A stretch of DNA of 64,000 nucleotides from an uncultured delta proteobacterium (GTDB taxonomy: Bacteria > Desulfobacterota > Binatia > UTPRO1): positions 451,064 to 515,063 of the forward strand of contig CAVZDH010000001.1 of the NCBI GenBank assembly GCA_963774015.1. The letters are read 5' to 3'. The notes beneath the pieces were generated by a model. That model was not told the origin of the DNA and ran no database searches. It worked only from the letters and a program-made list of their open reading frames with translations. Positions 45,768-62,925 of this stretch are shown here, piece after piece. Made by a program: the position numbers and the translations under genes. Every line of letters begins with the position of its first letter. Positions within the stretch are counted from its first letter, which is position 1.

Positions 45768-45779
45768 TAGTGTCTCAGT

Positions 45780-46377: not shown

Positions 46378-46482
46378 TTTGATTCCGGGCGCCCGATTCC
46401 GACCCGCGCAACCGCCGACGACGTGTGCTAGCTTCCGCGACGATGCCGAAGGGCCCCCCGAGGCGAGAAGCGCCCCGCTGAC

Positions 46483-47108: not shown

Positions 47109-47128
47109 TCCGGTCTGTGCAACGATCG

Positions 47129-47896
47129 CTAGGCTGCGTTCTCGTAGAGCAACGCGTCCGTGATGTCCGCCAGCGGCCGGCAGTAGTCCTCGGCGAGCGC
47201 CTCGATCGATTCACCGGCGCGTTTTCGTTCAGCCACGATTCGGGTACGGATATCGGTTCCGGCGATCACGGGTCGCCCATAGGCGTAGCGTGGGTGAATC
47301 AGGATGCGTCGGGCACTCGGAGCGGGGCCATCGATCTGGGCTTCTGTAGCGAAGGGAAACACGCCGATAGCGCCTGCCGGGTCGAATTGAATGCGTTCCA
47401 AGTAGCGGATTAGGACGTCACGCATGCCAACCTGGGCAACCGATGGGCTATCGGAGATATTCAACACAACCGCATCTTCGAGCGAATCCAGAAACAGACT
47501 GTACCCGTCCGTCAGCATCCGCGACGTTGCTAACGGATGTTCGGATTTGAATTCCCTGCGCAGATGCACTATTGCGTTGCGTACTTTCGGTAGCTTGATC
47601 CCGTAACGACGCCGTACCGAATCGAGTACAAAAACTTCCACGAGATTCGTAAACGACAGCAAACCGCGTTCGCGGTCAGCTATCTTGATCAGCGGATGCC
47701 ACGTCCGGTGACCGTCAGATACCGGATAGTCTCGACCGTACACCCAGGTGCGAACGGTGCTCGCCGGAACCTTCAAGTAGCTCGCGGCGCTAGCGACTGG
47801 GTAGTTCGGGACATGTCGCGGATCGACATCGCGGTAGCTCAGTATCGTGTCCGCTTTTGGCATCTTGACGTACCTGCACCAAGCATACACGGGCAC
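47129..47896 (-). CDS. HTH plus DUF433 domain protein (putative antitoxin/regulator)
   Basis: C-terminal DUF433 signature RILIHPRYAYGRPVIAGTDIRTRIVAERKRAGESIEALAEDYCRPLADITDALLYE; N-terminal HTH-like segment (AASYLKVPASTVRTWVYGRDYP); central region unassigned. Confidence 0.65.
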   Translation of the reverse strand: MPVYAWCRYVKMPKADTILSYRDVDPRHVPNYPVASAASYLKVPASTVRTWVYGRDYPVSDGHRTWHPLIKIADRERGLLSFTNLVEVFVLDSVRRRYGIKLPKVRNAIVHLRREFKSEHPLATSRMLTDGYSLFLDSLEDAVVLNISDSPSVAQVGMRDVLIRYLERIQFDPAGAIGVFPFATEAQIDGPAPSARRILIHPRYAYGRPVIAGTDIRTRIVAERKRAGESIEALAEDYCRPLADITDALLYENAA

Positions 47897-48060
47897 GGCA
47901 GTTCAAGGGAGAGCCGTTTGCATTCGCTAAGTTAGCGGACTGCCGAGAACATCAAGGGGCTGGTCGTTCTCCGGTCGTGCGTCGAGACGGTAGATTACCG
48001 GGCGACAATCAGGTGAAACTTTTGCTTGACACTCAAGTATTATTGTCATATCATTGCGGC

Positions 48061-48969
48061 ATGAACAAGTTGCCGGTTGCCACGCGGGTCCAGATCCTCT
48101 CGATGCTCTGCGAAGGCTCCTCGATGCGCTCGATCAGCCGGGTCGCTGACGTCTCGATCAACACCGTCGCCCGCTACCTCGTGATCGCCGGCAAAGCGTG
48201 CAGCGCGTTCCACGACGTCACCGTTCGCAACGTCGCTGCGAAGCGCGTGCAGTGCGACGAAATCTGGTCGTTCGTCGGGATGAAGGAGAAGGCCGCGAAG
48301 GCGAAGGCGTCGAAGGACGAGCGACCCGCGAACGTCGGCGACGTGTGGACGTGGACAGCGATCGACGCCGACTCGAAGCTGATCGTGTCGTGGCTCCTCG
48401 GCGGTCGCGATGCAGGGTGCGCGTGGGAGTTCATGACCGACGTCGCGTCGCGGCTTGCGAACCGCGTGCAGCTCACGACCGACGCGCACAAGGCGTATCT
48501 CACGGTCGTGCCCGAGGCATTCGGCTTCAACGTCGACTACGCGCAGATCGTCAAGGTCTACGGCGCCGATCCGAAGGAGGATCAGCGCCGCTACTCCCCG
48601 GCGCAGTGCCTCGGCGCCGAGAAGCTGCACATTCACGGCTACCCGAAAGACGAACACATCTCGACGTCGTATATCGAGCGCAGCAACTTAACGCTCAGAA
48701 TGGCGAACCGCCGCTTCACGCGGTTGACCAATGCGTTCTCGAAGAAGCTGGAGAACCACGCGCACATGGTCGCGCTCTACACGTGCTGGTACAACTTCGT
48801 GAAGATGCACAAGACGATTGGCTGCACCCCCGCGATGGCGGCCGGCGTGATCGACACGCTCTGGTCGATGACCGATCTCGTGGCGCTCGTCGACAAGTAC
48901 GACGACGCGCAGCCGCGCAAGAAGGCGGGGCGTAAGCCGAAGGCGACCGATCCGGGTTCTCAGTCATGA
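48061..48969 (+). CDS. IS1-family transposase (fused InsA-like HTH and InsB-like DDE domain)
   Basis: InsB-like blocks VQCDEIWSFVGMKEK, WTWTAIDADSKLIVSW, LTTDAHKAYL, IERSNLTLRMANRRFTRLTNAFSKKLENHAHMVALYTCWYNFVKMH match E. coli IS1 InsB pattern (VQSDELWTFVG...IERHNLNLRQ...); N-terminal HTH VATRVQILSMLCEGSSMRSISRVADVSINTVARYL. Confidence 0.85.
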   Translation: MNKLPVATRVQILSMLCEGSSMRSISRVADVSINTVARYLVIAGKACSAFHDVTVRNVAAKRVQCDEIWSFVGMKEKAAKAKASKDERPANVGDVWTWTAIDADSKLIVSWLLGGRDAGCAWEFMTDVASRLANRVQLTTDAHKAYLTVVPEAFGFNVDYAQIVKVYGADPKEDQRRYSPAQCLGAEKLHIHGYPKDEHISTSYIERSNLTLRMANRRFTRLTNAFSKKLENHAHMVALYTCWYNFVKMHKTIGCTPAMAAGVIDTLWSMTDLVALVDKYDDAQPRKKAGRKPKATDPGSQS

Positions 48970-49154
48970 GCCCGAAGGTCCGACGAGTGCTCGTCGGCTT
49001 CATTATCAGCTTCCTGATTCTTACTGGCTGCGAGGTCGCTGCGCGACTCTATCTCGACTGGGTTAAGACGAGCGGGGCATCCCGAGCCTGCACTGCACTC
49101 GGCGGCACGTGGGATGCGCCGGCCCGGCATTGCGCGAGCCCGGAATCAAACTGA
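48966..49154 (+). CDS. Small hydrophobic peptide ORF translationally coupled to the IS1-type transposase
   Basis: ATG overlaps transposase stop (ATGA); predicted TM or lipoprotein-like segment VLVGFIISFLILTGC; 3' end overlaps right inverted repeat; coding status uncertain. Confidence 0.3.
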   Translation: MSPKVRRVLVGFIISFLILTGCEVAARLYLDWVKTSGASRACTALGGTWDAPARHCASPESN

Positions 49155-49162
49155 GACACTAG
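49139..49162. repeat. Right terminal inverted repeat of IS1-family element
   Basis: GCCCGGAATCAAACTGAGACACTA is the exact reverse complement of the reconstructed left repeat. Confidence 0.6.
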
Positions 49163-51085
49163 TGCGCCGGTCAAAACCGGCAAGGTGTTGTGGATGAAAG
49201 AGCCACACGATGAAGGAGTAGCGACCCACATCGGCCCCGAGTCATGCGTCGCTGTCCGTGAGGGCAGAGGCGAAGCGTTGACAGGGGTACGTGCAGGCCA
49301 GCCATGGAGCCGCGAAAATCAATTATAGCCTCGGGTGCCGACGCTCTTAGTGTAAGCGGAAGGCAACATCGCAGTGCGTCGATATCGCGAGAGGCGGCGG
49401 ACCCGGCGCGGTCGAAGACCCTGCGCATGCACGGAAACACTTTGCACGGGAACCGGGAGATCCCGCCACCGTCTGGGAGCCGGAGTGGCCCAGACCGCAT
49501 CGGGAAGTCGAGAGACGCAATCCGATGACGCACGGTGACGGGAAGTCGGACACCGCCGTAGTACCGAGAGAAGCTGCCGAACAAAGCTGCGGAACCAGCG
49601 GCGGAGGCGGTGGAGGGAAGGGCGGTGGCCAAGGGGAAGACGCTCGAGCGTAACACGCTCCGGACGCAGAGCCGGGAAGGTGTGCCCAGCGCGCTCGAGC
49701 GGATACGAGAGGCCGCAAGGCAACAGAAGCAGCTGCGTTTCACCGCGCTCCTGCACCACGTCTACGACGTCGAACGGCTGCGGCGGGCCTACTACGCACT
49801 GAAGCGAGAGGCGGCGGCGGGAATCGACGGGGAGACGTGGAAGCACTACGGCGAGCAGTTGGGAGAAAATCTGCAAGACCTGTCCCAGCGGCTCAAACGG
49901 GGAGCGTACCGAGCCAAGCCTGTACGGCGGGCGTACATCGAGAAGGCGGACGGGCGGCAGAGGCCGCTCGGCGTTCCCGTGCTGGAGGACAAGATCGTCC
50001 AGCGCGCCGTCGTCGAGGTGCTCAACGCCATTTACGAACAGGACTTTGCGAGGTTCTCGTATGGATTCCGCCCGGGGCGCGGACCGCATGATGCCCTGAA
50101 CGCGCTGACGGTGGCGATCCAGACCAGAAAGGTGAGCTGGGTGCTCGACGCGGACATCAGAAGCTTCTTCGACACGCTGGAACACAGCTGGTTGGTGAAG
50201 TTCGTCGAGCATCGGGTGGCAGACCGGCGCATCGTGCGCCTCATCCAGAAGTGGTTGAGGGCCGGGGTGCTGGAAGAAGGTCGGCGGACACGTAGCGAGG
50301 TAGGGACGGTACAGGGCGGAAGCATCAGCCCGCTGCTGGCCAATATCTACCTGCACTACGTGTTCGATCTGTGGACCCAGCGATGGAGAAAGAAGCAGGC
50401 GCGCGGACAGGTCATCGTCGTGCGCTACGCCGACGACTTCGTCCTTGGGTTCGAGCATCGCCACGAGGCCGAGCAGTTCCTCGTGGATCTCAAGCAGCGG
50501 TTTTCCCAGTTTGGCTTGGAGCTGCACCCGGAGAAGACCAGACTGATCGAGTTCGGGCGGTTCGCCGCCAGCAATCGCGATCGGCGAGGACAGGGAAAGC
50601 CCGAGACCTTCGACTTCCTTGGCTTCACGCACAGCTGCGGGAAGACGCGGAAGACGGGGAGCTTTGTGGTGCTGCGGCGAACGATGCGCAAGCGGATGGC
50701 GGCGAAGCTGCAGGAAGTGAAAGCCGAACTGCGACGACGTCGGCACACGACCCTTGGCGAGCAGGCGGAGTATCTGCGAGCGGTGGTGCAAGGGCACATG
50801 CGGTACTATGGCGTGCCCCGCAACTTTCCAGCGCTCAACGCGTTCCGCTGGGCGCTCGGCCGACTGTGGTGGCGGTCGTTAGGCCGCCGCAGTCAACGCG
50901 GCCGCATCCCCTGGCAGCGCATGACGCGTATCCTACGTCTGGCACTGCCGCGTGTTCGCATCTGTCATCCCTATCCGTCCTTGGACGCATCTCGTCAGAA
51001 CCTGAGGCAGGAGCCGGATGCGGTAATGCCGCACGTCCGGATCTGTGCGGGGGGCGCCGAGCGATCGGCGTCCCTACCGCGACCC
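49163..51085 (+). mobile_element. Bacterial group II intron (ribozyme plus intron-encoded protein)
   Basis: 5' end GTGCGCC at 49163 (consensus GUGYG); RT/maturase ORF; domain V-like hairpin at 51011-51043; GNRA-capped hairpin at 51050-51073; 3' end near 51083-51085 (CGAC/CC), boundary +/- 3 nt. Confidence 0.8.
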
Positions 51086-51130
51086 GCCGCGTGGGAGGCC
51101 CTCATGGCCGCTGCCGGGGCGGAGAGATAA
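49610..51130 (+). CDS. Group II intron-encoded reverse transcriptase/maturase
   Basis: RT domains 0-7 (RPLGVPVLEDKIVQRAVVEVLNAIYEQDFARFSYGFRPGRGPHDAL; DADIRSFFDTLEH; YADDFVLGF) and maturase X domain; no HNH endonuclease domain seen; computed ORF runs through domain V, so true C-terminus is uncertain. Confidence 0.9.
   Translation: MEGRAVAKGKTLERNTLRTQSREGVPSALERIREAARQQKQLRFTALLHHVYDVERLRRAYYALKREAAAGIDGETWKHYGEQLGENLQDLSQRLKRGAYRAKPVRRAYIEKADGRQRPLGVPVLEDKIVQRAVVEVLNAIYEQDFARFSYGFRPGRGPHDALNALTVAIQTRKVSWVLDADIRSFFDTLEHSWLVKFVEHRVADRRIVRLIQKWLRAGVLEEGRRTRSEVGTVQGGSISPLLANIYLHYVFDLWTQRWRKKQARGQVIVVRYADDFVLGFEHRHEAEQFLVDLKQRFSQFGLELHPEKTRLIEFGRFAASNRDRRGQGKPETFDFLGFTHSCGKTRKTGSFVVLRRTMRKRMAAKLQEVKAELRRRRHTTLGEQAEYLRAVVQGHMRYYGVPRNFPALNAFRWALGRLWWRSLGRRSQRGRIPWQRMTRILRLALPRVRICHPYPSLDASRQNLRQEPDAVMPHVRICAGGAERSASLPRPAAWEALMAAAGAER
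51011..51043 (+). ncRNA. Group II intron catalytic domain V
   Basis: GAGCCGGAUGCGG-UAAU-GCCGCACGUCCGGAUC closely matches the domain V consensus GAGCCGUAUGCGAU-GAAA-GUCGCACGUACGGUUC, including the AGC triad. Confidence 0.6.
51086..51095. repeat. Right copy of 10-bp flanking direct repeat GCCGCGTGGG
   Basis: Identical to 45758-45767; lies just 3' of the group II intron. Confidence 0.55.
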
Positions 51131-51143
51131 GAAGGCGCCACCC

Positions 51144-51644
51144 GTGGACTTCGAGCTCCGCATCATCGGACGCGCCCGCACCCCGTGGACGCGCCGCGAG
51201 GACGCCCCGCACCAGCCCCCGGCGTCGCCGGAGACGCGGGGCATCGTGGAGATCGACCCGCCGTATCGCGAGGCGCTCGCCGATCTCGGGGGCTTCGGCC
51301 GTATTTGGTTAATTTTTCATTTCAACCGCAGCGGCGGCTGGGGTCCGAAGGTCCGACCCCCGCGCGGCGGACCGAAACGCGGCCTCTTCGCGACCCGCGC
51401 TCCGGACCGGCCGTCGCCGCTCGGCCTCACCAACGTGGCGCTCGAGTCGGTCGACCTCGAGCGCGGCACGGTCCACGTCCTCGGCCTCGACCTTCTCGAC
51501 GAGACGCCGATCCTCGACATCAAGCCGTATCTGCCGATGTTCGACGCCTGGCCCGATGCCGGGCACGGTTGGATCGAGCCGTATCTCGAGGCGGGCATCG
51601 AGCCGCGGCTCAAGCGGCCGAAGCGCGTGCTGCCGCGGGGGTGA
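51144..51644 (+). CDS. trmO: tRNA (N6-threonylcarbamoyladenosine) methyltransferase TrmO/TsaA family protein
   Basis: YaeB/TsaA-like motifs (RIWLIFHFNRSGGWGPKVRPPRGGPKRGLFATRAPDRPSPLGLTNV; DETPILDIKPYLPMFDA); GTG start. Confidence 0.8.
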   Translation: MDFELRIIGRARTPWTRREDAPHQPPASPETRGIVEIDPPYREALADLGGFGRIWLIFHFNRSGGWGPKVRPPRGGPKRGLFATRAPDRPSPLGLTNVALESVDLERGTVHVLGLDLLDETPILDIKPYLPMFDAWPDAGHGWIEPYLEAGIEPRLKRPKRVLPRG

Positions 51645-51678: not shown

Positions 51679-52320
51679 TCAGCGCCACGCCGGGAGGAGG
51701 GCCGGGGTCCGCGCTCGATAGCGAGCGTACTCCTCGCCGAGACCGGCGAGCATCGTCCGCTCCTCGACCCGGATCCGGTAGAGGTAGGCGGGCACGACCG
51801 CGGCGCCGACGAGGCCGAGGCCGAGGACGCTCCCGAGCGCGATCGCCGTCCCGGTCACGGTGAGGATGCTTCCCGTGTAGGAAGGATGGCGCATCCATCG
51901 GTACGGGCCGTGCGAGAGGACGCGCTGATCGTCCTGCACCACGACCGCCGACGTGAAGAACCGCCCGAGCGTGCGGATCGCCACGAGCCTGAGCCCCATC
52001 CCGAGGGCCGCGATTGCGATGCCGCCGGCGACGGTCGCCGAGGCCGGCGCCGGCGTCACGACGTCGCGCGCCGCGAACTGCAGGACGGACGCGAGGTTCG
52101 CGATCACCACCGCCAGGAAGATCAGCAAGGCCGAGCGGCGGTCGTTCGGGTCCGTGACGAGGTCCGCGGGCGACAGCGGCGGTTGCGACGACAGCGTGAG
52201 GAAGGCGCAGACGAAGCCCGCCCACGGCCCCGGATGCCGAAGGTAGGAAGCACCCGCCAGCGCCGGAGCGAGCAGGAACACGGCGGCGGGTATCGCGAGA
52301 TACGTGAGCAGGCGCTTCAC
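51679..52320 (-). CDS. Isoprenylcysteine carboxyl methyltransferase (ICMT/PEMT) family membrane methyltransferase
   Basis: 213 aa, 4-5 TM helices and C-terminal ICMT-type block (LSHGPYRWMRHPSYTGSIL...VEERTMLAGLGEEYARYRARTP); GTG start overlaps upstream stop. Confidence 0.7.
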   Translation of the reverse strand: MKRLLTYLAIPAAVFLLAPALAGASYLRHPGPWAGFVCAFLTLSSQPPLSPADLVTDPNDRRSALLIFLAVVIANLASVLQFAARDVVTPAPASATVAGGIAIAALGMGLRLVAIRTLGRFFTSAVVVQDDQRVLSHGPYRWMRHPSYTGSILTVTGTAIALGSVLGLGLVGAAVVPAYLYRIRVEERTMLAGLGEEYARYRARTPALLPAWR

Positions 52321-53756
52321 GGCTCGCTTCGCTTGTGCGCGCGCAGCGTGTCCTGCATCCGGGCGAGCGCGGTCTTGGTGAGGTCGTGCTCCACCTCGAC
52401 GAGGCTCGCGAGGTAGCGCTCGTAGCCGTCGCGCGACAACTTGAGCACGGTGAGCGGCGTCGACGCAATCACATCGGCGGTGCGCTCTCCACCCGCGATG
52501 AGCGCGATCTCGCCGAAGTAGTCGCGCGGCCCGAGCTCGCGCACCTTCACGTGACGACCGTCCGGCGTCGTGAGCTTCACCTCCGCGGTGCCTTCCTCGA
52601 TCAGGAACAGGTCCTCGCCGGCGTCGCCCTGGCGGACCACGTGCGTTCCCGCGTCGTACGACCAGCGTTCGAGGCACGTCGCCAGCACGGCGGCCTCGGC
52701 GACCGAGAGCTCGCGAAACAGCGTCGTCGTGCGCAGCCATTCCCCGACGTCGAGCAACTGCCGGCGCACCGCCATGTGACCGCCTTGCTCGGGCACTGGC
52801 GTATCGGAGAGCGCGGGCAGACCCTCGGGAGGGCAAAGACTGCTCGGCAGCGGCTTGGCGCCGCCCTTCAACTCGAGGAGCGCGATAAGTCCTTCCTCCC
52901 TCGGTGCCGCGAGCGCAGCCTCGATCGCCGCAAAACGCGTGCTGGAAAGCTCCGACGAGAGGAACGCGTACGGGTAGCGCGTCCGGTTTTGATAGTTGAA
53001 GAACCCGAAGGAGCCTTCCGTGGCGTACGGGATGACGCCGTGAAGTACGACGGTCGGCATGTGAAAGAAGTCCTGACTCTTCTTGGCGACGGCGAGCTCG
53101 AGGTCTCCGACGCACGCCTCGATCTCGTGGTGGAGCGATTCGCTCAGGATACGACACGCCGCCAACAGCAACTCCACCGGGCCTCGCGCCGAGAGCTCGT
53201 CCAGAGGAGGCCGGAAGTGGGTTTTCATCAGGCGACCCGCCTCGCGAACGCGTTGCGCCGGAAGGTCGGGCAAGATGCGCAGACGATCGAAGATTCCGCG
53301 GCCGAAGACCTCCTCGACGGGAAACAGCGGCCGACGCGCATCACGCATGATCGCGGCCGGCGGGACGTCGGCCAGCGCCTTGAACGTCCCATACGCGAGG
53401 ATCTCACCCGTTTCGGCGGCCCCGGAGAGGACATGCACGTCGGCCGGCGTCACACCCGAGAGCGGCTCGTGCCGCAGGCGCTCCGCGTGGATCAACCGCG
53501 GGTCCAGCTGGTGCGCCATCAGGTACTGCGCGAGCCGGAACGTCATGATCGCGACCAGCTGCTCCTCGGTGAGGCTCGGCGTGCGGAGCGCGACCGTGCT
53601 GACGCCGTGGCGGTCCTCGACCCAATACAACGCCTCGGGGTGGCGCCTCTGGAAGAGCTCCGGCAGGCGGATCGCGGCGGCGCGGTCGAGGAGCTCGCGG
53701 ATGAACGCGTCGACCTCCGGCTCGAGACCGACCAGGATGTCGTCGACGGCGGCCAT
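52317..53756 (-). CDS. Cyclic nucleotide-binding domain protein with uncharacterised ~320-aa N-terminal domain
   Basis: C-terminal cNMP-binding fold (ERWSYDAGTHVVRQGDAGEDLFLIEEGTAEVK...YFGEIALIAGGERTADVIA); N-terminal two-thirds matched nothing I recognise; start is 2 nt after the giant upstream gene's stop. Confidence 0.7.
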   Translation of the reverse strand: MAAVDDILVGLEPEVDAFIRELLDRAAAIRLPELFQRRHPEALYWVEDRHGVSTVALRTPSLTEEQLVAIMTFRLAQYLMAHQLDPRLIHAERLRHEPLSGVTPADVHVLSGAAETGEILAYGTFKALADVPPAAIMRDARRPLFPVEEVFGRGIFDRLRILPDLPAQRVREAGRLMKTHFRPPLDELSARGPVELLLAACRILSESLHHEIEACVGDLELAVAKKSQDFFHMPTVVLHGVIPYATEGSFGFFNYQNRTRYPYAFLSSELSSTRFAAIEAALAAPREEGLIALLELKGGAKPLPSSLCPPEGLPALSDTPVPEQGGHMAVRRQLLDVGEWLRTTTLFRELSVAEAAVLATCLERWSYDAGTHVVRQGDAGEDLFLIEEGTAEVKLTTPDGRHVKVRELGPRDYFGEIALIAGGERTADVIASTPLTVLKLSRDGYERYLASLVEVEHDLTKTALARMQDTLRAHKRSEP

Positions 53757-53758
53757 CG

Positions 53759-56700
53759 TCAGTCGGCCTTGGCGGCGAACGTCGTCGCGTCCTGCTTCTT
53801 GAAAGGCGCGCTGAAGACGGACTCCCAGCACGTGCCGGTCGCGTGGTTCACGAGCTGCACGCGCACGGGCGAGAGCAAGGCGGCGAGGCTCGGCGGCATG
53901 TCGAGCCGGTCCCCCTTGCCCTTCACCTGGATCTTGGCCTTGCCGGCGACGAGACCTTCGCGGAGCTGGAGCTGCGCGACGCCGTCCGGCGTGAGGTCGC
54001 CGTCCTTGTAGTCGAAACCCGTCTTCTTCTCGCGCCAGCACGCCTTGCCCTTGGCGCAGAAGCCGCCGGGCGGCACGATCGCCGTCGTGACGAGCCCGGT
54101 CGCGTCGTAGAGGCAGAGCTCGTAGCGGTCGGTGGTGAGCGGCTGCCCGAAATCGGCCTTCGTCGTGACGGCGCCCCTCGCCCACTTCCAGGCGAGCTGG
54201 TCCTTGGCGTCGGGGCTCTTGTCCTTGAGGAGCAGGCTCGCCTTGCCGGCGACGGCCGGCAAGCGGCAGCCGGCGAGCGGCGCCGGCGCGCACTCGCGGA
54301 GACAATCGGAGGAGCAGCCGTCGCCGCTCGCGGTGTTACCGTCGTCGCATTCCTCGGCGAGCTCGAGCACGCCGTCGCCGCAGGTCTGCACGTCGCAGGC
54401 GTCGCCCGTGCCGTCGCCGTCGGTGTCGCTTTGCGAGGGGTCGAAGGCCTCGGGACAATCGTCCTGCGCGTCCGGGACGCCGTCGTCGTCGGCATCGGCG
54501 GGCGTCGTCACGGCGGTCACGAGGGTCGGGAGGCAGCTCGCCCCGCTCGGGCAGTCGGGCGGCGTCGTCACCTCGGGACGACACGTCGCCGGCTGCCGCA
54601 GGATGCAGCGCCGGCAGTCGACGTCGGTCGCGCAGGCGAGCCCGGTGTAGCGCGTGCAGGTTCCGGTCGCGGTCGCGCAGGTGTCGAGGTCGCAGAAGGA
54701 GCCCGCGCCGCAGTCGGCGTCGACACCGCAGGGGATCGCGAGGTCGCAACGCCCGGCGGGGGCGAGGAAGACGCGCGTGTCCTCGGGCACGCGGAGCGGA
54801 TCCTGCCCGCCCGGGTCGACACGGCCGATCACCGTCACCGTCTCGGTGCAGAAGTCGTAGACCTGAATCACGAGGTCGCCGGGAAAGCCCTCGACGCTCA
54901 GGTCCTGGCCGCCCTGCTCGGCCTCGAGCGTCAGGAACGTCACCTTACTGCCGTCGATCTTGTAGGGTTCGCGCGGATCGCAGGCAGCGAGCCGGCACGG
55001 CGTCACCGCCTGGCGCACGTTCTTGAGCTCGCCGCTCACGGCGTCGTAGACCTGCAGCACGTCGTCGAGCGTATCGACGTCGGCCGGCACGCCGACGCCG
55101 CCGTTCAGGTTGGTGGCGTTCTCGGCCGCTTCGTTGGCGCTGAACGCCACGAGCTGCCGCGCGCCGCAGGTGGTCACCGCGGGCGCACCCAGCACGAAGT
55201 CGTCGGCCGCGACCCGGACGCCGGCCGTGCAGCTCGGCGCTCCGGGGCCGGTCGGCGTGCAGGCGAGCGGCGTGCCGGCGAGCGAGTACACCTGCAGCAC
55301 GCGGTCGGTCGCGTCGACGTCGGCGTTCAGCAGCGCGCCGCCCTGCACCGCCTCCGACGTGAGGAAGCCGACGACGTCACCGTTGATCGCGAGCGCCTCG
55401 CCGGCTTGCCCGGTGCTGATCCACGACCCCGCCGTCGCACCCGGGAGGGCATTCACCGCGACGACGTCGTCGCCGGCGTCGCCGTCGCCGTTCAGATCCG
55501 TTCCGCCGTCCGGGCATCCCGTGGTCACGGCGCCCGCCGTTCCGCACTCCGAGACGAGCGCCGCGAGCCCGCTCGTCGACGCCGCGACCGCCGTCGCCGC
55601 GCGCGCGAGGTTCACGACTGATCCGCCCTCCCAGAGCTGCACCACGTCGTCCGTCGTGTCGGCGTCCGGCGGGTTCAACGACCCGCCCGGACACGCGCCG
55701 GTCCCGACCGCCGACTCGGGCCGCAGGAACACCGCCGTCCCGTCGCTCGCCACCGCGACGTCGTCGGCGGGACAGAGCGTCGTCGTCGTCGCGCTCGCGG
55801 AATCGAGCACCTCGAGGACGGTGTCGTCGAGCGCGCCGTCGGCGAAGAGCGCATCGGCGCCGAGGGGGTCGGCGGGGTCAGTGCCGTGGACGAAGACGTC
55901 CCGGAAGCCGTTGGTGTCGTTGCCGACCCCGACGAGATTCGTCGCGTCGCTCAGGAACGCCACCTCGCGGGCGTCGCGCGACAGCCCGAGGAAGCCGTTC
56001 ACCGTACCACCTCCGCCGGTGGCCTCCTCGCCGGCGAGGCCGACGTTCACGCGCGTGGTCACGCCGCTCTCGCGGTCGGAGAGGAAGATGTCGCCGGCCC
56101 CGTTCGTGTCGAGCCCGGCGCCGAGGAGATTCGTCGCGCTGCTGTAGAACGCGACGTACCGCCCGTCCGGCGAGATCGTGACGTCGGTCGGCGGAGCGTC
56201 CGGGCTCGTCCCGCCGGGACCGCGTCCGACGAGCGTCGTCACCCCCGTCAAACGATCGTGGACGAAAGCATCGGTCGCGCCGTTGACGTCTGCTTCTGCT
56301 GTGAGATTGCTCGCGCCGCTCTCGAACGCGACGAAGCGACCGTCGGCGGACATCGTGACGCGAGAGAAGCCGGATGCGCCATTGCTCTCGATGCCGCCGG
56401 GTCCGATGCTGACCCGCTCGTTCGCACCGGTCTGCCGGTCACGCACGAAGACGTCCGAGACGCCGTTGGTGTCGAGACCCGGGTCGAGGAGGTTCGAAGC
56501 GGTGCTCGTGAAGGCGACGTAGCGCCCGTCGGCGGAGATGGCGGGCCACTCACCGGATCCGCTCGGCGGCTCCGCGCCGCCTGGACCGACGTCGACCCGC
56601 TCCGTCGTGCCGAGCAAGCGGTCGCGCACGAAGACGTCGCGGTTGCCGTTGGTGTCGCCACCCGGCCCGAGCAGATTGGTCGCATCGGACGCGAAGACCA

Positions 56701-59008
56701 CGAAGCGACCGTCGGCAGAGAGCGCCGGAATTACCGAGTGGCCGTCGCCTTCGAGGCCGCCGGGCCCGACGCTCACGCGCTCGGTCACGCCCGTCCCGAG
56801 ATCGTGCACGAAGACGTCGATGAAGCCGTTGGTGTCGCCCCCCGGCCCGAGCAGGTTGGTCGCATCGCTTGCGAAGGCGACGTGCTGCCCGTCGGCCGAG
56901 ATGGCGACGAACCCCGAACCTACGAACGGTGTGCCGTTGGCCTCGAGGCCGCCCGGGCCCACGCTCACGCGTGTCGTCGTGCCCGCCACGCGATCCCGGA
57001 CGAAGACGTCCTCGGCTCCGTTCGTATCGCCGCCCGGTCCGAGGAGATTCGCCGACGTGCTGGAGAAGGCGACGTACCGACCGTCTGCCGAAATGCCGAG
57101 GCCTGCGTTCGTCGAGCCGCCGCCCGCGCTCGCCTCGACGCCGCCCGGACCGAGGTTCGCGCGCCCGGTCGTCTGCTGCGCCGCTCCCGTCTCCGGCCGC
57201 CGGTAGAATACCTCGCCGCTCGCCACCATCAGGCCCTGCCCGTTGATCCGCGGCGCCGGGTCGACGACGCGCGGCGGGCTCAGGCTCGCGGTCACCTCGC
57301 CGGCGCCGAGCTTGAAGACGCGCAGGATCGCGTCCGCGCGGTCGTAGTCGCCGTTCTCGTCGCAGTAGTTCTGCGCTGCCTCCGACTCGAGGAAGGCGAG
57401 GACGTCGTTCTCGACCGCGACGGCGGGGAACGAGAACACGCCGTCCTGCACGCGCACGGCGGCGCGGCCCTCGGGCGTACCGGCGAGGCCGCACGCGGGG
57501 AGCGGCGCACCGCCGACCGCGAAGCCGTCGGGTGCGCCGAGCGGCTGCACGACGCCGGTCGCGCGGTCGCGGAGGATCGCGACTGCATCCAGCAGATCCG
57601 TGTCGCCGTTCCGCTGCACGCCGTCGATCGCCTCCTCGACGACGAACGAGCGAAGGTCCGGGCTCGCGGCGAGGCCGTCGAGCGGGACCGGCGTGTTGGC
57701 CTGGATGCTGTAGCCGACGCAGGCGTTGAAAGCCCCCGGGCAGTCGCCCGGGCCGCTGCACGCTTGATAGGGCGTGAGCTGGCAACGACGCGGGGCCGCG
57801 CGGTCGAGGTAGAGGCCGCCGGCCGTGCTCGCGCCGGCAAGGTCGTAGAGCGCGCCGCAGGGCGCGGCACCGCCGCAGTCGCCGTCGGTCGCGCAGGGGA
57901 GCGCCGGGTTGCCGACGCAGCTCGTCGCGCACGTTCCGCCCGGACAATCGAGGATGGTCGCGCAGCGCGCGCCCGCGTTCGCGCCGGCGCTGCACGTACC
58001 GTGGTGGCGCGCGACGCGGAGGATCGTGTAGGGCGCGTCGGTCGAGCCGAAGAAGCGCACGAAGTCGGAGGTGCTCGCCGATTGATCGAGCTGGGGCTCG
58101 AAGATCGGTCCGAGACGCTTCCCTTCGGGCGTGAAGCTCGTGAGGAACACTTGCGCCGGGATCTGCACCGGGAAGCCCACCGGCGCGCTGATCGCGGTGC
58201 TGAGGAGGCGCGGCACCGGTACGCGCGCTTGCGGCACGAGGATGCCTTGCCAGGCGATCGGCATCAGCACGTTGCCGCTCGCGTCGAGCGCGGCGCGGAG
58301 TTCCGGCGCCGTCGGGTTGCAGGGCGGGTCGAGGAAGCAGTCGCGCTGGTAGTCGTTCGGCGGCGGCAGCGCGGTGAAGCTCGCGAACTCGGGGTTCGGG
58401 ATCCCCGTGCCGCAGCTGCCGTCGTTCACGAAGAAGTCGTCGATGCAGGCGACCAGCCCGCTCTGCGCGGCGCACGGCACCGCCGCCAGGTTGCAGGGGA
58501 GCGGATCGGTGCGGCGCGTGACGGCGATCCGCGCCGGACCCGCGAGTGTGCGGTCGTCGCTCGGGGTGCCGACCGCGTCGTCGGTGTCGGGGAAGCGGAA
58601 GCCGAGCTCCACGTGCCCTTCGCGCTCGACCGTCGCGAGCCCCGCGGTCGCGTCGGCGACGCACGCGAGCATCGCGGGCGGGAGGTCGCAGGCCGCGAGC
58701 TGGTGTGCGAGCGCGTCGCAGTCCGCGTCGGGCGAGAGCACGCGGAGCGCGTTCGTGCCCGATCCCGGGAACGCCACCGTCACGACGTAGTCGCCGGTCG
58801 TGAGCGAGAGGCCGGGCGACCCGGCGGCGTCACAGGAGCGGAGCGCCACCGCGACGCGCTCGCCGGGCGCCGCGTAGGGCCGGTCGGTCGTCCCGAGGAC
58901 GCCGTTGAAGGAGGCAGTGGTGCCAGGGATCAAGTTGCACCCGGCCTGCACGATGCGCGGCAGGGCGAGCAGCAGCAGGATCGTCAAGAGCGAACGGGCG
59001 GCCCGCAT
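53759..59008 (-). CDS. Giant secreted protein (1749 aa): TolB-like beta-propeller repeats, thrombospondin type-3 calcium-binding repeats, myxo-type cysteine-rich repeat and conserved C-terminal domain
   Basis: Signal peptide MRAARSLLTILLLLALPRIVQAG; 9 or more tandem ~53-aa repeats (ISADGRYVAFSSTSANLLGPGGDTNGAEDVFVRDRVAGTTTRVSVGPGG); TSP3-like DADDDGVPDAQDDCPEAFDPSQSDTDGDGTGDACD; Cys-rich CGDGVLELAEECDDGNTASGDGCSSDC; C-terminal domain shared with the 5129-6851 protein. Confidence 0.85.
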   Translation of the reverse strand: MRAARSLLTILLLLALPRIVQAGCNLIPGTTASFNGVLGTTDRPYAAPGERVAVALRSCDAAGSPGLSLTTGDYVVTVAFPGSGTNALRVLSPDADCDALAHQLAACDLPPAMLACVADATAGLATVEREGHVELGFRFPDTDDAVGTPSDDRTLAGPARIAVTRRTDPLPCNLAAVPCAAQSGLVACIDDFFVNDGSCGTGIPNPEFASFTALPPPNDYQRDCFLDPPCNPTAPELRAALDASGNVLMPIAWQGILVPQARVPVPRLLSTAISAPVGFPVQIPAQVFLTSFTPEGKRLGPIFEPQLDQSASTSDFVRFFGSTDAPYTILRVARHHGTCSAGANAGARCATILDCPGGTCATSCVGNPALPCATDGDCGGAAPCGALYDLAGASTAGGLYLDRAAPRRCQLTPYQACSGPGDCPGAFNACVGYSIQANTPVPLDGLAASPDLRSFVVEEAIDGVQRNGDTDLLDAVAILRDRATGVVQPLGAPDGFAVGGAPLPACGLAGTPEGRAAVRVQDGVFSFPAVAVENDVLAFLESEAAQNYCDENGDYDRADAILRVFKLGAGEVTASLSPPRVVDPAPRINGQGLMVASGEVFYRRPETGAAQQTTGRANLGPGGVEASAGGGSTNAGLGISADGRYVAFSSTSANLLGPGGDTNGAEDVFVRDRVAGTTTRVSVGPGGLEANGTPFVGSGFVAISADGQHVAFASDATNLLGPGGDTNGFIDVFVHDLGTGVTERVSVGPGGLEGDGHSVIPALSADGRFVVFASDATNLLGPGGDTNGNRDVFVRDRLLGTTERVDVGPGGAEPPSGSGEWPAISADGRYVAFTSTASNLLDPGLDTNGVSDVFVRDRQTGANERVSIGPGGIESNGASGFSRVTMSADGRFVAFESGASNLTAEADVNGATDAFVHDRLTGVTTLVGRGPGGTSPDAPPTDVTISPDGRYVAFYSSATNLLGAGLDTNGAGDIFLSDRESGVTTRVNVGLAGEEATGGGGTVNGFLGLSRDAREVAFLSDATNLVGVGNDTNGFRDVFVHGTDPADPLGADALFADGALDDTVLEVLDSASATTTTLCPADDVAVASDGTAVFLRPESAVGTGACPGGSLNPPDADTTDDVVQLWEGGSVVNLARAATAVAASTSGLAALVSECGTAGAVTTGCPDGGTDLNGDGDAGDDVVAVNALPGATAGSWISTGQAGEALAINGDVVGFLTSEAVQGGALLNADVDATDRVLQVYSLAGTPLACTPTGPGAPSCTAGVRVAADDFVLGAPAVTTCGARQLVAFSANEAAENATNLNGGVGVPADVDTLDDVLQVYDAVSGELKNVRQAVTPCRLAACDPREPYKIDGSKVTFLTLEAEQGGQDLSVEGFPGDLVIQVYDFCTETVTVIGRVDPGGQDPLRVPEDTRVFLAPAGRCDLAIPCGVDADCGAGSFCDLDTCATATGTCTRYTGLACATDVDCRRCILRQPATCRPEVTTPPDCPSGASCLPTLVTAVTTPADADDDGVPDAQDDCPEAFDPSQSDTDGDGTGDACDVQTCGDGVLELAEECDDGNTASGDGCSSDCLRECAPAPLAGCRLPAVAGKASLLLKDKSPDAKDQLAWKWARGAVTTKADFGQPLTTDRYELCLYDATGLVTTAIVPPGGFCAKGKACWREKKTGFDYKDGDLTPDGVAQLQLREGLVAGKAKIQVKGKGDRLDMPPSLAALLSPVRVQLVNHATGTCWESVFSAPFKKQDATTFAAKAD

Positions 59009-59383: not shown

Positions 59384-59767
59384 TTACTTGACGACTTCAT
59401 TTATCTGATAGGACAAGGTCGTATAGCCGGCCCCAGAACCGGTAATCGCGGTAGCTGTGCAAAGGTTCGGGACACACCAAATTTCGCTTTCCTCGTAACC
59501 CACAGTACTGGAAGATAGTTCTTGAAGATTGCAGTCATAAAGCTTCACCGTGACTTGGCAACTCGTTCCCCCCGCGATGGTGACGCACGTGACGGGCTTC
59601 ATCGGCTTCACGGTACGGAACAAATATTTGCTTGTCCCACCGCATGCTATGGTTGCGTCGGCGCCTCCAATGGTTAGCCCTCCAGGAGAAAGGGCCCAAG
59701 CCGCGCGGAAGCTCGTCGCGATGGTCAGCGTGATTGCTACGCACAACATGATCGATCCATGCCTCAT
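59384..59767 (-). CDS. Small secreted hypothetical protein encoded in lower-GC cassette
   Basis: Signal peptide MRHGSIMLCVAITLTIATSFRAAWA; GAGGGAG RBS 7 nt upstream; 6 Cys in mature part; local GC ~55-58% vs ~70% surroundings. Confidence 0.5.
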   Translation of the reverse strand: MRHGSIMLCVAITLTIATSFRAAWALSPGGLTIGGADATIACGGTSKYLFRTVKPMKPVTCVTIAGGTSCQVTVKLYDCNLQELSSSTVGYEESEIWCVPNLCTATAITGSGAGYTTLSYQINEVVK

Positions 59768-60070
59768 TGTGATCTCCCTCTCGGCAAAACGTGTCCGGGC
59801 CAAATACAATAAGCGAGTCGCGACGAACCTCTTCGAACGCCAGGGCATTACGACCTCCTTTTGATTGGGCTGGTGTGTCGCGCTGAGGCGCGTGGTCGGT
59901 GGTTCCATGCTCGATCAAGGGGTGTAGAGTCGACATGAGAATTCTCCGCGGGAACCCGCTGGAAGCGGCTTTGGGCCCCTTGTCCGTCGACGAGGTAGTG
60001 AGGGATCGAGCGCGCATGCGGATGTCTTCCCCAGCGGCGTTCCGCGCAACGCACCAATGCGCAGACGCCG

Positions 60071-60120
60071 AGCAGATCGAATGACATCGAAGATTCGAAC
60101 GTCAGTTCACGCAGAGATTG
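60071..60120. repeat. Right copy of ~50-bp imperfect direct repeat (overlaps the 3' end of the 60102-62771 gene)
   Basis: See 59059-59108; this copy includes the terminal codons (NLCVN-stop) of the adjacent secreted protein gene. Confidence 0.6.
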
Positions 60121-62771
60121 GATTTCTGGATCGTCAACTTTCCGTAGCCGCGGTCCGCGAAGAAGCCGTCGACCACGAAGAAGTACTTGTGTCCGGAGAG
60201 CAACGAGATCTCGGTCTCCTCTCCTTTGCCGCCGTCGGGACAGTCGAAGTTGTCGTTGAAACAGCGCAGCTCCGAGCCCGTGCAGGTGTGGAATTGGGGA
60301 TCCTCGTCGCGGGCATACAGCTCGGTGTCGAAGTCGCTACGGCACGTCGTGAACTCGTAGCACCCGTCGCTTGACGGCGTGAAGCTGAAGACCTTTTCCG
60401 GGCCGGTGGTGCCGGTGACGTCGCACGAGCCGTTCTGCGTCGAGGCTCCCGAAGTTTGGGCTCCGACGATGACGACCGGGTATGGGTCGGCTTGCGACCC
60501 GGGGACCGCGCTCGGGATCGCGTAGGCGTTGCCGCACGTGCCGCCGCCTCCGCAGCCGCCACCGCAGTCGACGCAAAAATAGTCGTACTCGTCGACGACG
60601 TCGCCGCCGCGGGTGTCGCCGTTGTTGCAGCCCGCGTTCGGGAAGGTGCCGCAGTGCGCCTTCACACGTGTCGTTCCATCGACGCGGAGCTCCGCGCCGT
60701 AGATGTAGCCGTTGGCGCCGTTTTGGACCTTGACGTTGAGCACGTTCTCGCCGCAGAGGAGGGCGCTCGAAACATCGGCGAATCCGGTATCCTGTCCGTA
60801 GCTCGTTGCGGACAGGACCGGCTGCCCGTTGAGAAATGCGTCGATGCGATCGTCGGTGTCGTAGAGCCGAAGCGTCGCGACGTGGGGGGTGGCCGTGACG
60901 GTGGGTGTCGGCGTGCGGGTGGCGGTGGCGCTCGGCGTGAGTGTCGGCGTCGGCGTGCGCGTCGCCGTTCGAGTCGGAGTCGACGTCGAGACCGCAGTGG
61001 CGGTTGCGGTCGTGCTCGGAGTCGCAGTGCGCGTAGCGGTGACAACCGGCGTGGCCGTGATCGTCGGTGTTGCCGTCGGAGTCGAGACGGTGGTCGTCGT
61101 GGCCGTCGGCGGCGCGGTCGGCGTGGCGACGGGTGTCGTGCTAGGCGTCGGCGTGCTCGTCGGCGTCGTCGGCGGAGCGTCCGGATCCATCACGACCAGG
61201 AGCGGCGTGTACGCGCTCACCTCGCCGTCGACGCGGGTCGCGAGGCCGAGGGTGAAGGCGCAGGTCGGGAGCGGATCGAAGAACTCGACGTCGAGCTCGT
61301 CCTCCACTTCGGCATCGGGCGTCGGCGGCGGCTCGAGCTCCACCTCGAAGTGATCGGGATCACCTTGACCGTCGAGCAAGGTCACGATCAGCTGCGGCGG
61401 TTCGGTGAGCACGCCGGCAGCGGCTCGCGTCTTCGAGCCTCCGAGCGTGTAGCGGAAGGGGATCTTTGTGAGTGGACCGAAGGCTGGTCGGGAGACGAAG
61501 CTCACGGATCTCGGTGCACCGGGCCTCGCGAGCGGCGCGCCCGAAAGTCGGAGGCCGATCGTGGTCGAGCGCCGGATCGAGCGGATGATCTTCAACAAGC
61601 TGCCGAAGACCGAGTGCGGCGCCGCAATCGCCGGCGCCGCTTCGGTCAGTGCGGGACAAGTGGCAACGAGGTCCGGGGCGATCGCGCCGAGGCCGACCGT
61701 GTCGTCGAGGTCGGCGACGCGCGGTAACGCCTGCTGCGCGCCTTCGGCAGCCGAGCAGCGGGCCCGACGCGCGAGGCAGTCGGCGAGCGTTCCCGGACCC
61801 GTGACCGCCGGGACGCCGAGCGCGGTGCATGCCGGTTCGAGCGCTGTGAGGTTGAGGCCGTTGTCGGCCAGGAGCCGCGTGAAATCGACCACATCGGCCG
61901 CGCACTTGCCGTTTGTGAAGGTTTTCGTGAACCGCGTCAGGAGGCCGGCGATCTTCGCCGGCTGCTGGTTGCACGTCGTCGTGGTTTTCCGCTGGCAGAT
62001 CGTCGCGTCCTTGCTCGTCTGGGCGCACTCGAATGCCTTGGTCGCGCAACGAAGCAGGCTCTTCTGTACGCCGACGAGCAGCGTCTCGAGCGCATGGCTC
62101 GCCGCCTTGGCGCACGCGTTCACGGGCGTATCGTCGGGAGGCACGACGAAACAATCGCCGCAGCCCGGATATCGCGGCAGGCCATCGACCGTCGGCAGCG
62201 GCAAAGGCGCGTCGGGGAGAAGGTCGAGCAACTCGGCGCTGCGGGGCGCGCCGCGACCGTAGAGATCCGCGGCGGCGCGATCGGGGAGGCGTACCAAACA
62301 GGCTGCGAGCGGTGCGATGCCCTGGCAGACGTCGAGGCCGAGATCGCTCCGGCATCGGCTGGCGAGACGCCCGAGGCCGAGGCCTTCCTCTTTCAAAAGG
62401 TCCACGAGGTGCAGCTTCTCGTGACAGCTGGCGTTCGTGACGATCTTCGCCGCGAGCGCCGTCAGCGTCTTGTCGGTGCTCGCGAGCTTCTTCGCACAAC
62501 GCGCCGCCACCTTTCCGAGACACGTCGCATCGTCCCCTTTGGTCTGTATGCATGCCAGCGCGCCTCCGATGCACGTGTCGAGCACGTGCCCACGCTGCTG
62601 CTCTATTTTGGTGCTGGTTTTTGCGATCAACTTTTGACACGCGATCGCGGCTTTGCGTGCGAGCACGGTGGAGAGACCAGCGCTCGCGGTCACTCCGGCG
62701 GCTGGCGTCGTGAGGACGACGACTGCTGCCGCGAGGACGAGGCCGACGACCCAGTTCCTGCTCATTCTCAT
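60102..62771 (-). CDS. Secreted protein with Cys-rich helical N-terminal region, Thr/Pro-rich linker and C-terminal pre-peptidase-C-terminal-like domain
   Basis: Signal peptide MRMSRNWVVGLVLAAAVVVLTTPAAG; ~95-aa TP-rich low-complexity linker (TPTSTPTPSTTPVATPTAPPTATTTTV...); C-terminal Cys-containing beta-sandwich-like region. Confidence 0.7.
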   Translation of the reverse strand: MRMSRNWVVGLVLAAAVVVLTTPAAGVTASAGLSTVLARKAAIACQKLIAKTSTKIEQQRGHVLDTCIGGALACIQTKGDDATCLGKVAARCAKKLASTDKTLTALAAKIVTNASCHEKLHLVDLLKEEGLGLGRLASRCRSDLGLDVCQGIAPLAACLVRLPDRAAADLYGRGAPRSAELLDLLPDAPLPLPTVDGLPRYPGCGDCFVVPPDDTPVNACAKAASHALETLLVGVQKSLLRCATKAFECAQTSKDATICQRKTTTTCNQQPAKIAGLLTRFTKTFTNGKCAADVVDFTRLLADNGLNLTALEPACTALGVPAVTGPGTLADCLARRARCSAAEGAQQALPRVADLDDTVGLGAIAPDLVATCPALTEAAPAIAAPHSVFGSLLKIIRSIRRSTTIGLRLSGAPLARPGAPRSVSFVSRPAFGPLTKIPFRYTLGGSKTRAAAGVLTEPPQLIVTLLDGQGDPDHFEVELEPPPTPDAEVEDELDVEFFDPLPTCAFTLGLATRVDGEVSAYTPLLVVMDPDAPPTTPTSTPTPSTTPVATPTAPPTATTTTVSTPTATPTITATPVVTATRTATPSTTATATAVSTSTPTRTATRTPTPTLTPSATATRTPTPTVTATPHVATLRLYDTDDRIDAFLNGQPVLSATSYGQDTGFADVSSALLCGENVLNVKVQNGANGYIYGAELRVDGTTRVKAHCGTFPNAGCNNGDTRGGDVVDEYDYFCVDCGGGCGGGGTCGNAYAIPSAVPGSQADPYPVVIVGAQTSGASTQNGSCDVTGTTGPEKVFSFTPSSDGCYEFTTCRSDFDTELYARDEDPQFHTCTGSELRCFNDNFDCPDGGKGEETEISLLSGHKYFFVVDGFFADRGYGKLTIQKSNLCVN

Positions 62772-62925
62772 TCGCGATCCGGATGACGGCGCGTCGCTGT
62801 CGCGACGCAGAAGAAACTCTCCTCCTCTCACGAGGTGTGAAAATCGTGGGAACAGATGTTCCACGAGCTTTCACACCACTCTCGTCAGAACGCTCTCGCG
62901 CGGATGCGGGAAGGAGCCGAGACGT

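Follow-up and report, generated by a model that had tools for sequence, protein, structure and literature searches.

The locus described here combines parts that are each familiar from characterised systems. It lies in a 64,000-nt stretch of DNA from an uncultured delta proteobacterium (GTDB lineage Bacteria; Desulfobacterota; Binatia; UTPRO1; GenBank assembly GCA_963774015.1, contig CAVZDH010000001.1, positions 451,064 to 515,063), referred to below as the window, and consists of three minus-strand genes that encode, in order, a giant secreted protein, a middle protein with a cyclic nucleotide-binding (CNB) domain, and a membrane methyltransferase of the ICMT type. We propose that the middle protein is an acyltransferase under cyclic nucleotide control and that it forms a conserved pair with the methyltransferase, the giant being a possible, facultative partner rather than part of the core.

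LuxI-type acyl-homoserine lactone (AHL) synthases (LasI, 1ro5; TofI, 3p2h; RpaI, 6wn0; BjaI, 5w8a; MesI, 6wns; EsaI, 1kzf) are only 8-16% identical to the middle protein, which gives no Pfam or profile match to them, has a domain ~100 residues larger, and adds a C-terminal CNB domain; it has no LuxR partner, and the neighbours of its family are methyltransferases, exporters and oxidases. We know of no LuxI-type synthase with a CNB domain. N-acyl amino acid synthases (NAS; FeeM/TIGR03694) resemble the middle protein's family in their environmental, soil-type distribution, but the middle protein is not a member by sequence and NAS enzymes lack a CNB domain. The PEP-CTERM/exosortase genes associated with NAS of the TIGR03694 type were not seen here, and the giant lacks a PEP-CTERM or MYXO-CTERM tail. 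The mycobacterial protein acetyltransferase Pat (Rv0998/MSMEG_5458; 4ava, 4avb) likewise carries CNB and GNAT domains in one polypeptide, and is a precedent for direct allosteric control of a GNAT enzyme by a cyclic nucleotide; in Pat, by contrast, the CNB domain is N-terminal and the GNAT domain C-terminal, and the latter is of the protein-lysine acetyltransferase type, whereas that of the middle protein is predicted to be LuxI/FeeM-like. The third protein of the locus has the S-adenosylmethionine (SAM)-site motifs of solved ICMTs and is a small polytopic membrane protein, as in the ICMT/Ste14 family with its bacterial members LmtA (a lipid A 1-phosphate methyltransferase) and MddA, but ICMT proper has a prenylated CaaX substrate and an associated prenyltransferase and Rce1/Ste24 protease, and the neighbouring giant has no CaaX motif.

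Related combinations of functions have been reported elsewhere. NAS clusters can hold methyltransferase genes, ThiF/TcdA-like genes, and genes for sorted secreted proteins (PMC7293339, citing Craig et al. 2011). In the olsH-olsG-olsI operon of Singulisphaera acidiphila, an enzyme that N-acylates an amino acid and a lipid methyltransferase together give a methylated aminolipid (PMC12493201), but OlsH is a GH3 adenylating enzyme rather than a GNAT, and the operon is not under cyclic nucleotide control. N-acyl alanine methyl esters (NAMEs) of Roseovarius tolerans are real bacterial AHL look-alikes whose synthase genes were not found (PMC11580390); they are known as compounds only, from a marine alphaproteobacterium, and we saw no member of the middle protein's family in Rhodobacterales. 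Full-text literature searches for either kind of synthase (N-acyl amino acid or autoinducer) together with cyclic nucleotide terms returned nothing, and the catalytic domain of the middle protein lies outside the coverage of the Pfam and NCBIfam models. An initial annotation of the DNA, made from its sequence, had not recognised the three-gene set as a described system, and the literature and family-model searches agree. The parts (a GNAT/LuxI-like acyltransferase, a CNB domain, an ICMT-family methyltransferase) are of known kinds; the GNAT-CNB fusion, and the conserved presence of methyltransferases and exporters as its partners, appear to be undescribed.

A predicted acyltransferase with a C-terminal cyclic nucleotide sensor

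The two genes at the centre of our proposal, and their principal features, are as follows.

52317-53756, minus strand: middle gene (acyltransferase-CNB), 479 aa; translation, third-position GC 0.87
52857-53639, minus strand: predicted GNAT-fold acyltransferase domain, aa ~40-300, with E172 and R175
52347-52745, minus strand: CNB domain, aa ~338-470, with an intact phosphate-binding cassette, FGEIALIAGGERTA
52317-52320, minus strand: GTGA start/stop overlap (4 nt) between the middle gene and the ICMT-like gene; sequence ...GAGCC GTGA AGCGC...
51679-52320, minus strand: ICMT-like gene, 213 aa; translation, third-position GC 0.91

The middle protein had been annotated simply as a second-messenger receptor, but modelling and structural matches point instead to an enzyme-like GNAT fold followed by the CNB domain. 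The AlphaFold model, built with an alignment of 70 full-length homologues, is confident (pLDDT 91.1 and pTM 0.86 at full length; pLDDT 88.9 for the N-terminal domain alone), and its N-terminal domain is predicted to have a GNAT fold like that of LuxI and like that of FeeM. The top Foldseek matches of the model are TofI, LasI and BjaI, and the best structural matches are acyl-ACP- or acyl-CoA-dependent small-molecule acyltransferases (ACP, acyl carrier protein; CoA, coenzyme A) rather than Pat or toxin-activating acyltransferases. Two family-invariant residues, E172 and R175, are placed by alignment and model on a beta-strand just ahead of a long helix, a position that, judged by secondary-structure order, would correspond to that of E101 and R104 in the 'WELSRF' motif of LuxI; the motif itself is present in the PDB sequences of LasI, TofI, BjaI and RpaI.

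The sensor domain is readily recognised. Pfam assigns aa 366-450 to cNMP_binding (PF00027, 72 bits), PDB sequence searches match CNB domains only, and in the phosphate-binding cassette (FGEIAL....RTA) G415 and E416 are invariant across the family, with R425 and A427 at least 90% conserved. It is the only CNB domain in the window. The protein has no hydrophobic segments, and is, on the strength of the model, a soluble cytoplasmic LuxI/FeeM-like GNAT acyltransferase with a C-terminal cyclic nucleotide sensor, that is, a predicted enzyme.

CNB domains have other well-known contexts. The middle protein has in common with Crp/Fnr regulators the cyclic nucleotide-binding beta-barrel and phosphate-binding cassette, and the initial annotation had recognised that a DNA-binding domain would make it a standard regulator of this type; it has no C-terminal helix-turn-helix, ending 9 residues past the C-helix of the CNB domain, and CRP/FNR models of NCBIfam score 18-33 bits against cut-offs of 245-300. 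We also rejected an anti-phage cyclic nucleotide effector (Pycsar/CBASS), for which PADLOC matches are confined to the CNB domain at no more than 36 bits, and for which no cyclase was found in the window.

Conserved pairing with a membrane methyltransferase

The third protein scores above Pfam cut-offs for both ICMT (PF04140, 64.0 bits; cut-off 24) and PEMT (PF04191, 60.2 bits; cut-off 25), and has four to five hydrophobic segments. It aligns to the ICMTs of Tribolium (5v7p, 5vg9) and Methanosarcina (4a2n), with 'HGPYRWMRHPSYTG' and 'RVEERTML..LGEEYARY' conserved, such that the SAM-site RHPxY and EE motifs (HG.Y.W.RHPSY.G and R..EE..L...G..Y..Y) are intact relative to all three structures. We therefore regard it as a predicted integral-membrane SAM-dependent methyltransferase with an intact SAM site. 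Its scores fall below the NCBIfam equivalog cut-offs for ICMT (NF040696, 60.8 versus 160), MddA (26.7 versus 270) and LmtA (20 versus 325).

The initial annotation described a tightly coupled operon, and the junctions bear this out: the giant and middle genes are separated by 2 nt, and the middle and ICMT-like genes overlap by 4 nt, a junction that is also tight in five further loci, with equivalent overlaps of 4-8 nt in L007, L090 and the P0003 locus. The GTGA overlap implies, from the sequence, translational coupling of the middle and ICMT-like genes.

To place this junction in context, we collected ~95 neighbourhoods of middle-protein homologues: ~15 loci from exact protein look-up and a genome scan, and 80 metagenome loci retrieved by an N-terminal-domain profile, with neighbouring genes classified by local profile searches and Pfam. 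The scan of genome contigs returned mostly CNB-only matches, true family members being those of L010, L011 and L013, together with the partial L012 and L014. Against 1.84 billion cluster representatives, the N-terminal-domain profile matches 394 clusters at E <= 1e-3 and 324 at E <= 1e-10; the family is rare and environmental. Full-length homologues are plentiful in metagenomes, where they are annotated only as 'cyclic nucleotide-binding', and labelled members belong to Chloroflexota, Acidobacteriota (Vicinamibacterales) and Actinomycetota (Gaiellaceae). PF00027 nearly always accompanies the N-terminal domain. The few cases without it are mainly incomplete sequences, although some representatives of ~300-340 aa may be stand-alone acyltransferase domains.

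The type of gene found downstream varies with the sequence cluster to which the acyltransferase belongs. In the window's own group, all six loci (the window, L007, L090, the P0003 locus, L091 and L099) have an ICMT/PEMT gene in this position, with most junctions overlapping by 4-8 nt. Elsewhere in the family the partner is replaced: by an MMPL exporter at ~20 loci, by an amine-oxidase-type flavoprotein at ~7, by a nitroreductase-like gene (with ThiF upstream) at 4, by FAD_binding_4 at six loci from the same broad cluster as the window's ICMT group, by a member of the leucine carboxyl methyltransferase (LCM) family at L159, L161 and L168 (spacings of -37, +2 and -4 nt), and by a class-I methyltransferase at L140. 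Thus, three unrelated methyltransferase folds fill the downstream slot, two of them named for carboxyl methylation, which argues that the product of the acyltransferase is methylated, plausibly on a carboxylate. Other recurring neighbours are patatin lipases (several CNB-fused), ThiF-like enzymes (some CNB-fused) and SnoaL-like proteins, together with a P450, a GH3 acyl-amido synthetase, and MacB-type ABC transporters with GAF domains; the presence of MMPL exporters, flavoproteins, lipases, GH3, ThiF-like enzymes and a P450 points to a lipid or small-molecule pathway. No LuxR-type receptor gene occurs among the annotated neighbours of 12 loci, and no exosortase gene in the neighbourhoods examined.

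The CNB-fused neighbours include a ThiF-like enzyme and patatin lipases encoded at L005 11857-13209, L007 2966-4855 (minus strand) and L013 3982-5970, and direct sensing of the nucleotide may be a feature of several enzymes within a single pathway. At L010 (Gaiellaceae; 7959-10004), an extra 161-aa CNB open reading frame (ORF) lies directly before the family gene, and the GH3 gene directly upstream is split into two ORFs; these oddities reflect either frameshifts in a long-read metagenome-assembled genome or a CNB-acyltransferase-CNB variant. Upstream of the L090 pair, the 43-aa end of an ORF resembles the C-terminus of M48/Ste24 but has no Pfam match, and we do not consider it further.

A proposed pathway

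We consider it somewhat probable that the conserved functional unit is the pair formed by the acyltransferase-CNB protein and the ICMT-like methyltransferase, and that this pair makes a methylated N-acyl amino-acid-like lipid or signal on a cyclic nucleotide command. By analogy with Pat, binding of cAMP or cGMP at the C-terminal CNB domain would switch the acyltransferase on or off. The acyltransferase would move a fatty acyl group from acyl-ACP or acyl-CoA onto the amine of an amino acid or similar acceptor, giving an amphiphile with a free carboxylate, which the ICMT-like enzyme would then methylate at the membrane; the end product would be a lipid or signal resembling an N-acyl amino acid methyl ester. 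The carboxylate would be the likeliest target, since ICMT naturally acts on an N-acylated amino acid that bears a lipid and has its alpha-carboxylate free. A bacterial enzyme of the ICMT family, LmtA, methylates an acidic group on a lipid.

Several observations weigh against this proposal. Sequence homology of the N-terminal domain to the LuxI or NAS families is undetected: aa 1-340 have no Pfam match up to an E value of 10, including to Autoind_synth, and the region outside the CNB domain has no NCBIfam match, including to TIGR03694. A profile of the domain found nothing among PDB sequences, and hhalign against a mini-alignment of LasI, TofI, BjaI and RpaI gave a probability of 0.1%. The LuxI/FeeM-like assignment is accordingly one of fold and topology, sequence methods finding no relationship. 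Moreover, the acceptors of GNAT-fold enzymes include proteins, sugars and polyamines, and the model does not show which acceptor is used here. Members of the ICMT/PEMT family likewise methylate phosphates (LmtA), thiols (MddA) and amines (PEMT), such that carboxyl methylation is a preference on our part and not a result. Methylation is also not obligatory for the family, as FAD_binding_4 replaces ICMT at some loci of the subgroup nearest the window. Lastly, the window holds no detectable cyclase gene that might supply the nucleotide.

The giant secreted protein

The gene upstream of the pair has the following features.

53759-59008, minus strand: giant, 1749 aa; ORF, translation, third-position GC 0.92
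58943-59008, minus strand: Sec-type signal peptide MRAARSLLTILLLLALPRIVQA, followed by the mature N-terminus GCNLIPGT; translation, with the cleavage site predicted
55739-56941 (approximate), minus strand: ~7-8 PD40/TolB-type beta-propeller blades, aa ~690-1090; Pfam PD40 and visible repeats
54293-54502, minus strand: TSP3-type acidic calcium-binding repeat, then a cysteine-rich acidic repeat (DUF4215/myxo_disulf_rpt), aa 1503-1572; TIGR02232, DUF4215
53762-54271, minus strand: lysine-rich C-terminal module, ~170 aa; profile of the family C-terminus
53757-53758, minus strand: 2-nt spacer from the giant TGA to the middle-gene ATG; sequence ...GCCGAC TGA cg ATG GCC...

The ORFs and junctions read from the sequence confirm the annotated unit of three minus-strand genes, with the expected sizes, 2-nt gap and GTGA overlap. 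In a window of ~70% GC, third-position GC of 0.87-0.92 indicates that all three frames are truly coding. Two features support placing the start of the giant at 59008: a GGAGG located 8 nt upstream, and homologues with the same signal peptide and conserved N-terminus (AxA|[GA]CNLIPGT, spanning the end of the signal peptide and the mature N-terminus). No promoter-like or terminator-like site was found on the minus strand within the unit, which is closed by a convergent TrmO-like gene (51027-51644, plus strand).

The domain calls of the initial annotation for all three proteins (a secreted beta-propeller/TSP3 giant, a cyclic nucleotide-binding domain, an ICMT/PEMT membrane methyltransferase) are borne out. 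For the giant, Pfam reports PD40 at 54 bits and DUF4215 at 25.6 bits, just under its cut-off, and NCBIfam adds a myxo cysteine-rich repeat (TIGR02232, 40.9 bits) and a TSP3-containing stretch, which gives local matches to TSP3 stretches in the MtsC and Omp28 models. The blade repeat read in the translation is 'GPGG..E..G...ISADGR.VAF.S.A.NLL..G.DTNG..DVFV.DR', and homologues of the giant also contain PF26549 (Tricorn_N). Pfam finds no RTX repeats (HemolysinCabind) in the protein. On these domains, the giant is a predicted Sec-exported, calcium-binding, beta-propeller-bearing surface or extracellular protein.

The giant belongs to a large family, characteristic of Candidatus Binatia-like bacteria, with >500 homologues of ~1650-1900 aa, several labelled Candidatus Binatia, with P0121 as the database entry identical to it; giant genes are multi-copy in the genomes that carry them. 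Among P0121-P0150, the mature N-terminus [GA]CNLIPGT.KTFN..LGATNRPFAAPGE is nearly invariant, and some members end in a CaaX-like tail (C-P-x-P, C-P-I-L or C-L-G-P). The ICMT-like protein of the window and a CNB-Rce1-like fusion encoded near a giant homologue recall eukaryote-like CaaX processing. Such processing is not supported for the giant of the window, which ends ...FAAKAD, or for that of L091, since neither has a CaaX-like box; no prenyltransferase was seen among the subset of window ORFs scanned with Pfam. The lysine-rich C-terminal module recurs in an ORF of ~250 aa elsewhere in the window (6096-6848, plus strand; E 5e-18; no Pfam match), and from these matches is evidently common to several secreted proteins of this organism.

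Association of the giant with the pair

A giant-family gene lies directly upstream of the pair at two of the five informative ICMT-group loci, the window and L091, whose acyltransferases are 60-63% identical. The gene that ends 78 nt upstream of the L091 pair matches the giant-family C-terminal profile (E 4e-11), and over all 144 available aa is 51-56% identical to the C-termini of the family members P0132, P0128, P0237 and P0217 (E 3e-41), which indicates that the order giant, acyltransferase-CNB, ICMT recurs independently; BLASTP of this fragment against the C-terminus of the window's own giant is not significant, and the link is seen only through the family profile and other members. At the remaining three informative loci, the gene upstream of the pair is instead one for an ABC substrate-binding protein (L007) or a divergent ECF sigma factor (L099), or there are only small ORFs (the P0003 locus). 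In ~80 loci of other subfamilies, profiles built from the first 700 aa and the last 230 aa of the giant match nothing, and the pair is absent after the two nearest of the giant homologues examined (55% and 54% identity). Thus, of the gene order set out in the initial annotation, the part that is conserved is the pair, and the three-gene system as a whole is reproduced at L091 alone. That the module acts on the envelope is compatible with these data. A functional link between giant and pair is tentative, somewhere between unlikely and a little short of even, the sample being small and the giant genes multi-copy.

Two further patterns bear on this link. In the MMPL subfamily, a gene for a secreted NHL beta-propeller/cupredoxin protein lies directly upstream of the acyltransferase at all 17 loci with enough sequence; with the MMPL gene downstream, the layout of secreted propeller, acyltransferase-CNB and membrane protein is a recurrent one. 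The second pattern concerns the three distinct giant-homologue loci outside the window (L092-94, counted as one, L095 and L091). CNB genes occur within three genes of the giant homologues L092 and L095: L092-94 have nearby a fusion of a CNB domain to an Rce1-like (CPBP) intramembrane protease and a large guanylate-cyclase/AAA_16 protein (L092 4126-5316 and 14369-17622), and L095 has LolA-like, ABC-2 and 201-aa CNB proteins (8322-10843). This suggests a wider cyclic nucleotide-linked envelope theme around the giant family.

The NHL/cupredoxin (type-1-copper) genes are at L003 2886-4481, L005 6282-7919, L013 6121-7905 and 14 metagenome loci (L103-L146); the L013 protein ends in a membrane anchor at its C-terminus. 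Peptidylglycine alpha-amidating monooxygenase contains an NHL propeller, its PAL domain, which processes N-acylglycines as well. It is pure speculation, by this analogy, that the NHL/cupredoxin loci might carry out an extracellular conversion of an exported N-acyl amino acid.

Alternative explanations

The three genes could form a single system, in which the lipid made by the pair anchors the giant or is its ligand or cofactor, or in which the giant is itself modified by the pair, such that a cyclic nucleotide controls a property of the cell surface. The 2-nt gap with no detected internal promoter or terminator, the giant-family gene upstream of the pair at the independent locus L091, the flanking NHL/cupredoxin and MMPL genes at 17/17 loci of the largest sister subfamily, and the CNB genes near the giant homologues of L092 and L095 all fit this explanation. 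We nonetheless think it unlikely, given the lack of an upstream giant at three of five informative loci and across the ~80 loci of other subfamilies, and the lack of the pair after the two closest giant homologues. In addition, direct modification of a mature, Sec-exported protein by a cytoplasmic acyltransferase is topologically awkward, and multi-copy giant genes mean that some adjacencies are expected by chance or descent. The converse, that a two-gene module landed beside a giant gene in a region with mobile-element remnants, is a serious possibility that stops short of being probable. Upstream neighbours differ among close relatives of the pair, and IS200-type and IS1-type transposase genes with a dip in GC lie 3-8 kb downstream; against an incidental adjacency, the arrangement recurs at L091, and the 2-nt spacing implies, as read from the sequence, that the giant and middle genes are co-transcribed in this genome.

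Other explanations concern the reaction itself. The middle protein might be a true AHL-type quorum-sensing synthase, using SAM and acyl-ACP under cyclic nucleotide control, with the ICMT-like gene unrelated to its product. The Foldseek matches would suit such an enzyme, but it shows no profile similarity to these synthases and no Autoind_synth match even at an E value of 10, no annotated neighbourhood holds a LuxR-type receptor gene, and an AHL has no free carboxylate, although the slot directly downstream is repeatedly filled by methyltransferases of three unrelated families, two of which take their names from carboxyl methylation; we regard an AHL synthase as improbable. We consider it more improbable still that the GNAT domain acts on proteins, either as a Pat-type lysine acetyltransferase regulated by cAMP or as an RTX-toxin-activating acyltransferase that modifies the giant before export. 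A calcium-binding giant beside an acyltransferase does recall hlyC-hlyA, but the giant has a Sec signal peptide at its N-terminus and no RTX repeats, and the window's OEP and MacB genes are ~40 kb away, so we rejected this analogy. As for Pat, the domain order is opposite, the match to the NCBIfam Pat model (NF058543) reaches 48.9 bits, where the cut-off is 460, and is confined to the CNB region (aa 346-467), and the best structural matches are small-molecule enzymes. The usual partners of the family (MMPL exporters, flavin oxidases, lipases) also indicate a small-molecule or lipid pathway, in line with our proposal that the pair makes a methylated acyl amino-acid-like product.

If this proposal is correct, cyclic nucleotides would allosterically control an acyl-amino-acid or AHL-like synthase without a transcription factor, a direct link for which the bacterial precedent is mainly Pat. 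It would provide a function-level annotation for a family that is labelled 'cyclic nucleotide-binding protein' or 'CRP-like' in Chloroflexota, Acidobacteriota, Actinomycetota and Binatia-like soil bacteria. The neighbourhoods would point to a set of cyclic nucleotide-gated lipid enzymes, in that an acyltransferase, patatin lipase, ThiF-like enzyme and Rce1-like protease are all found fused to CNB domains. A broader reading, which we consider distinctly unlikely, is that these proteins are an unrecognised class of second-messenger-gated signal or lipid synthases, whose product would work with a co-encoded extracytoplasmic beta-propeller protein (the giant here, the NHL-cupredoxin protein in the sister subfamily) as receptor, processing enzyme or anchored protein.

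Genomic surroundings

Downstream of the operon, at a distance of 3-8 kb, are an IS200/IS605-type Y1 transposase gene (45820-46287, plus strand) and an IS1-like transposase remnant (47869-48969, plus strand). GC content drops from ~0.70 to 0.61-0.65 across positions 44000-50000, where these genes sit, and the stretch is likely a mobile-element scar. Upstream, between the giant and the next large gene, a lower-GC ORF of ~128 aa (59384-59770, minus strand) has a signal-peptide-like start and several cysteines; neither it nor the large gene itself (60102-62864, minus strand; 920 aa) has a Pfam match. Farther away, ~35-45 kb from the operon, are a B12-binding radical SAM gene (9391-10773, minus strand) and genes for a TolC-like OEP and a MacB-type ABC transporter (within 12756-17307, plus strand). 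Another probable surface protein, of 910 aa with SdrD_B/SpaA-like and DUF7450 repeats, is encoded at 39919-42651 (minus strand).

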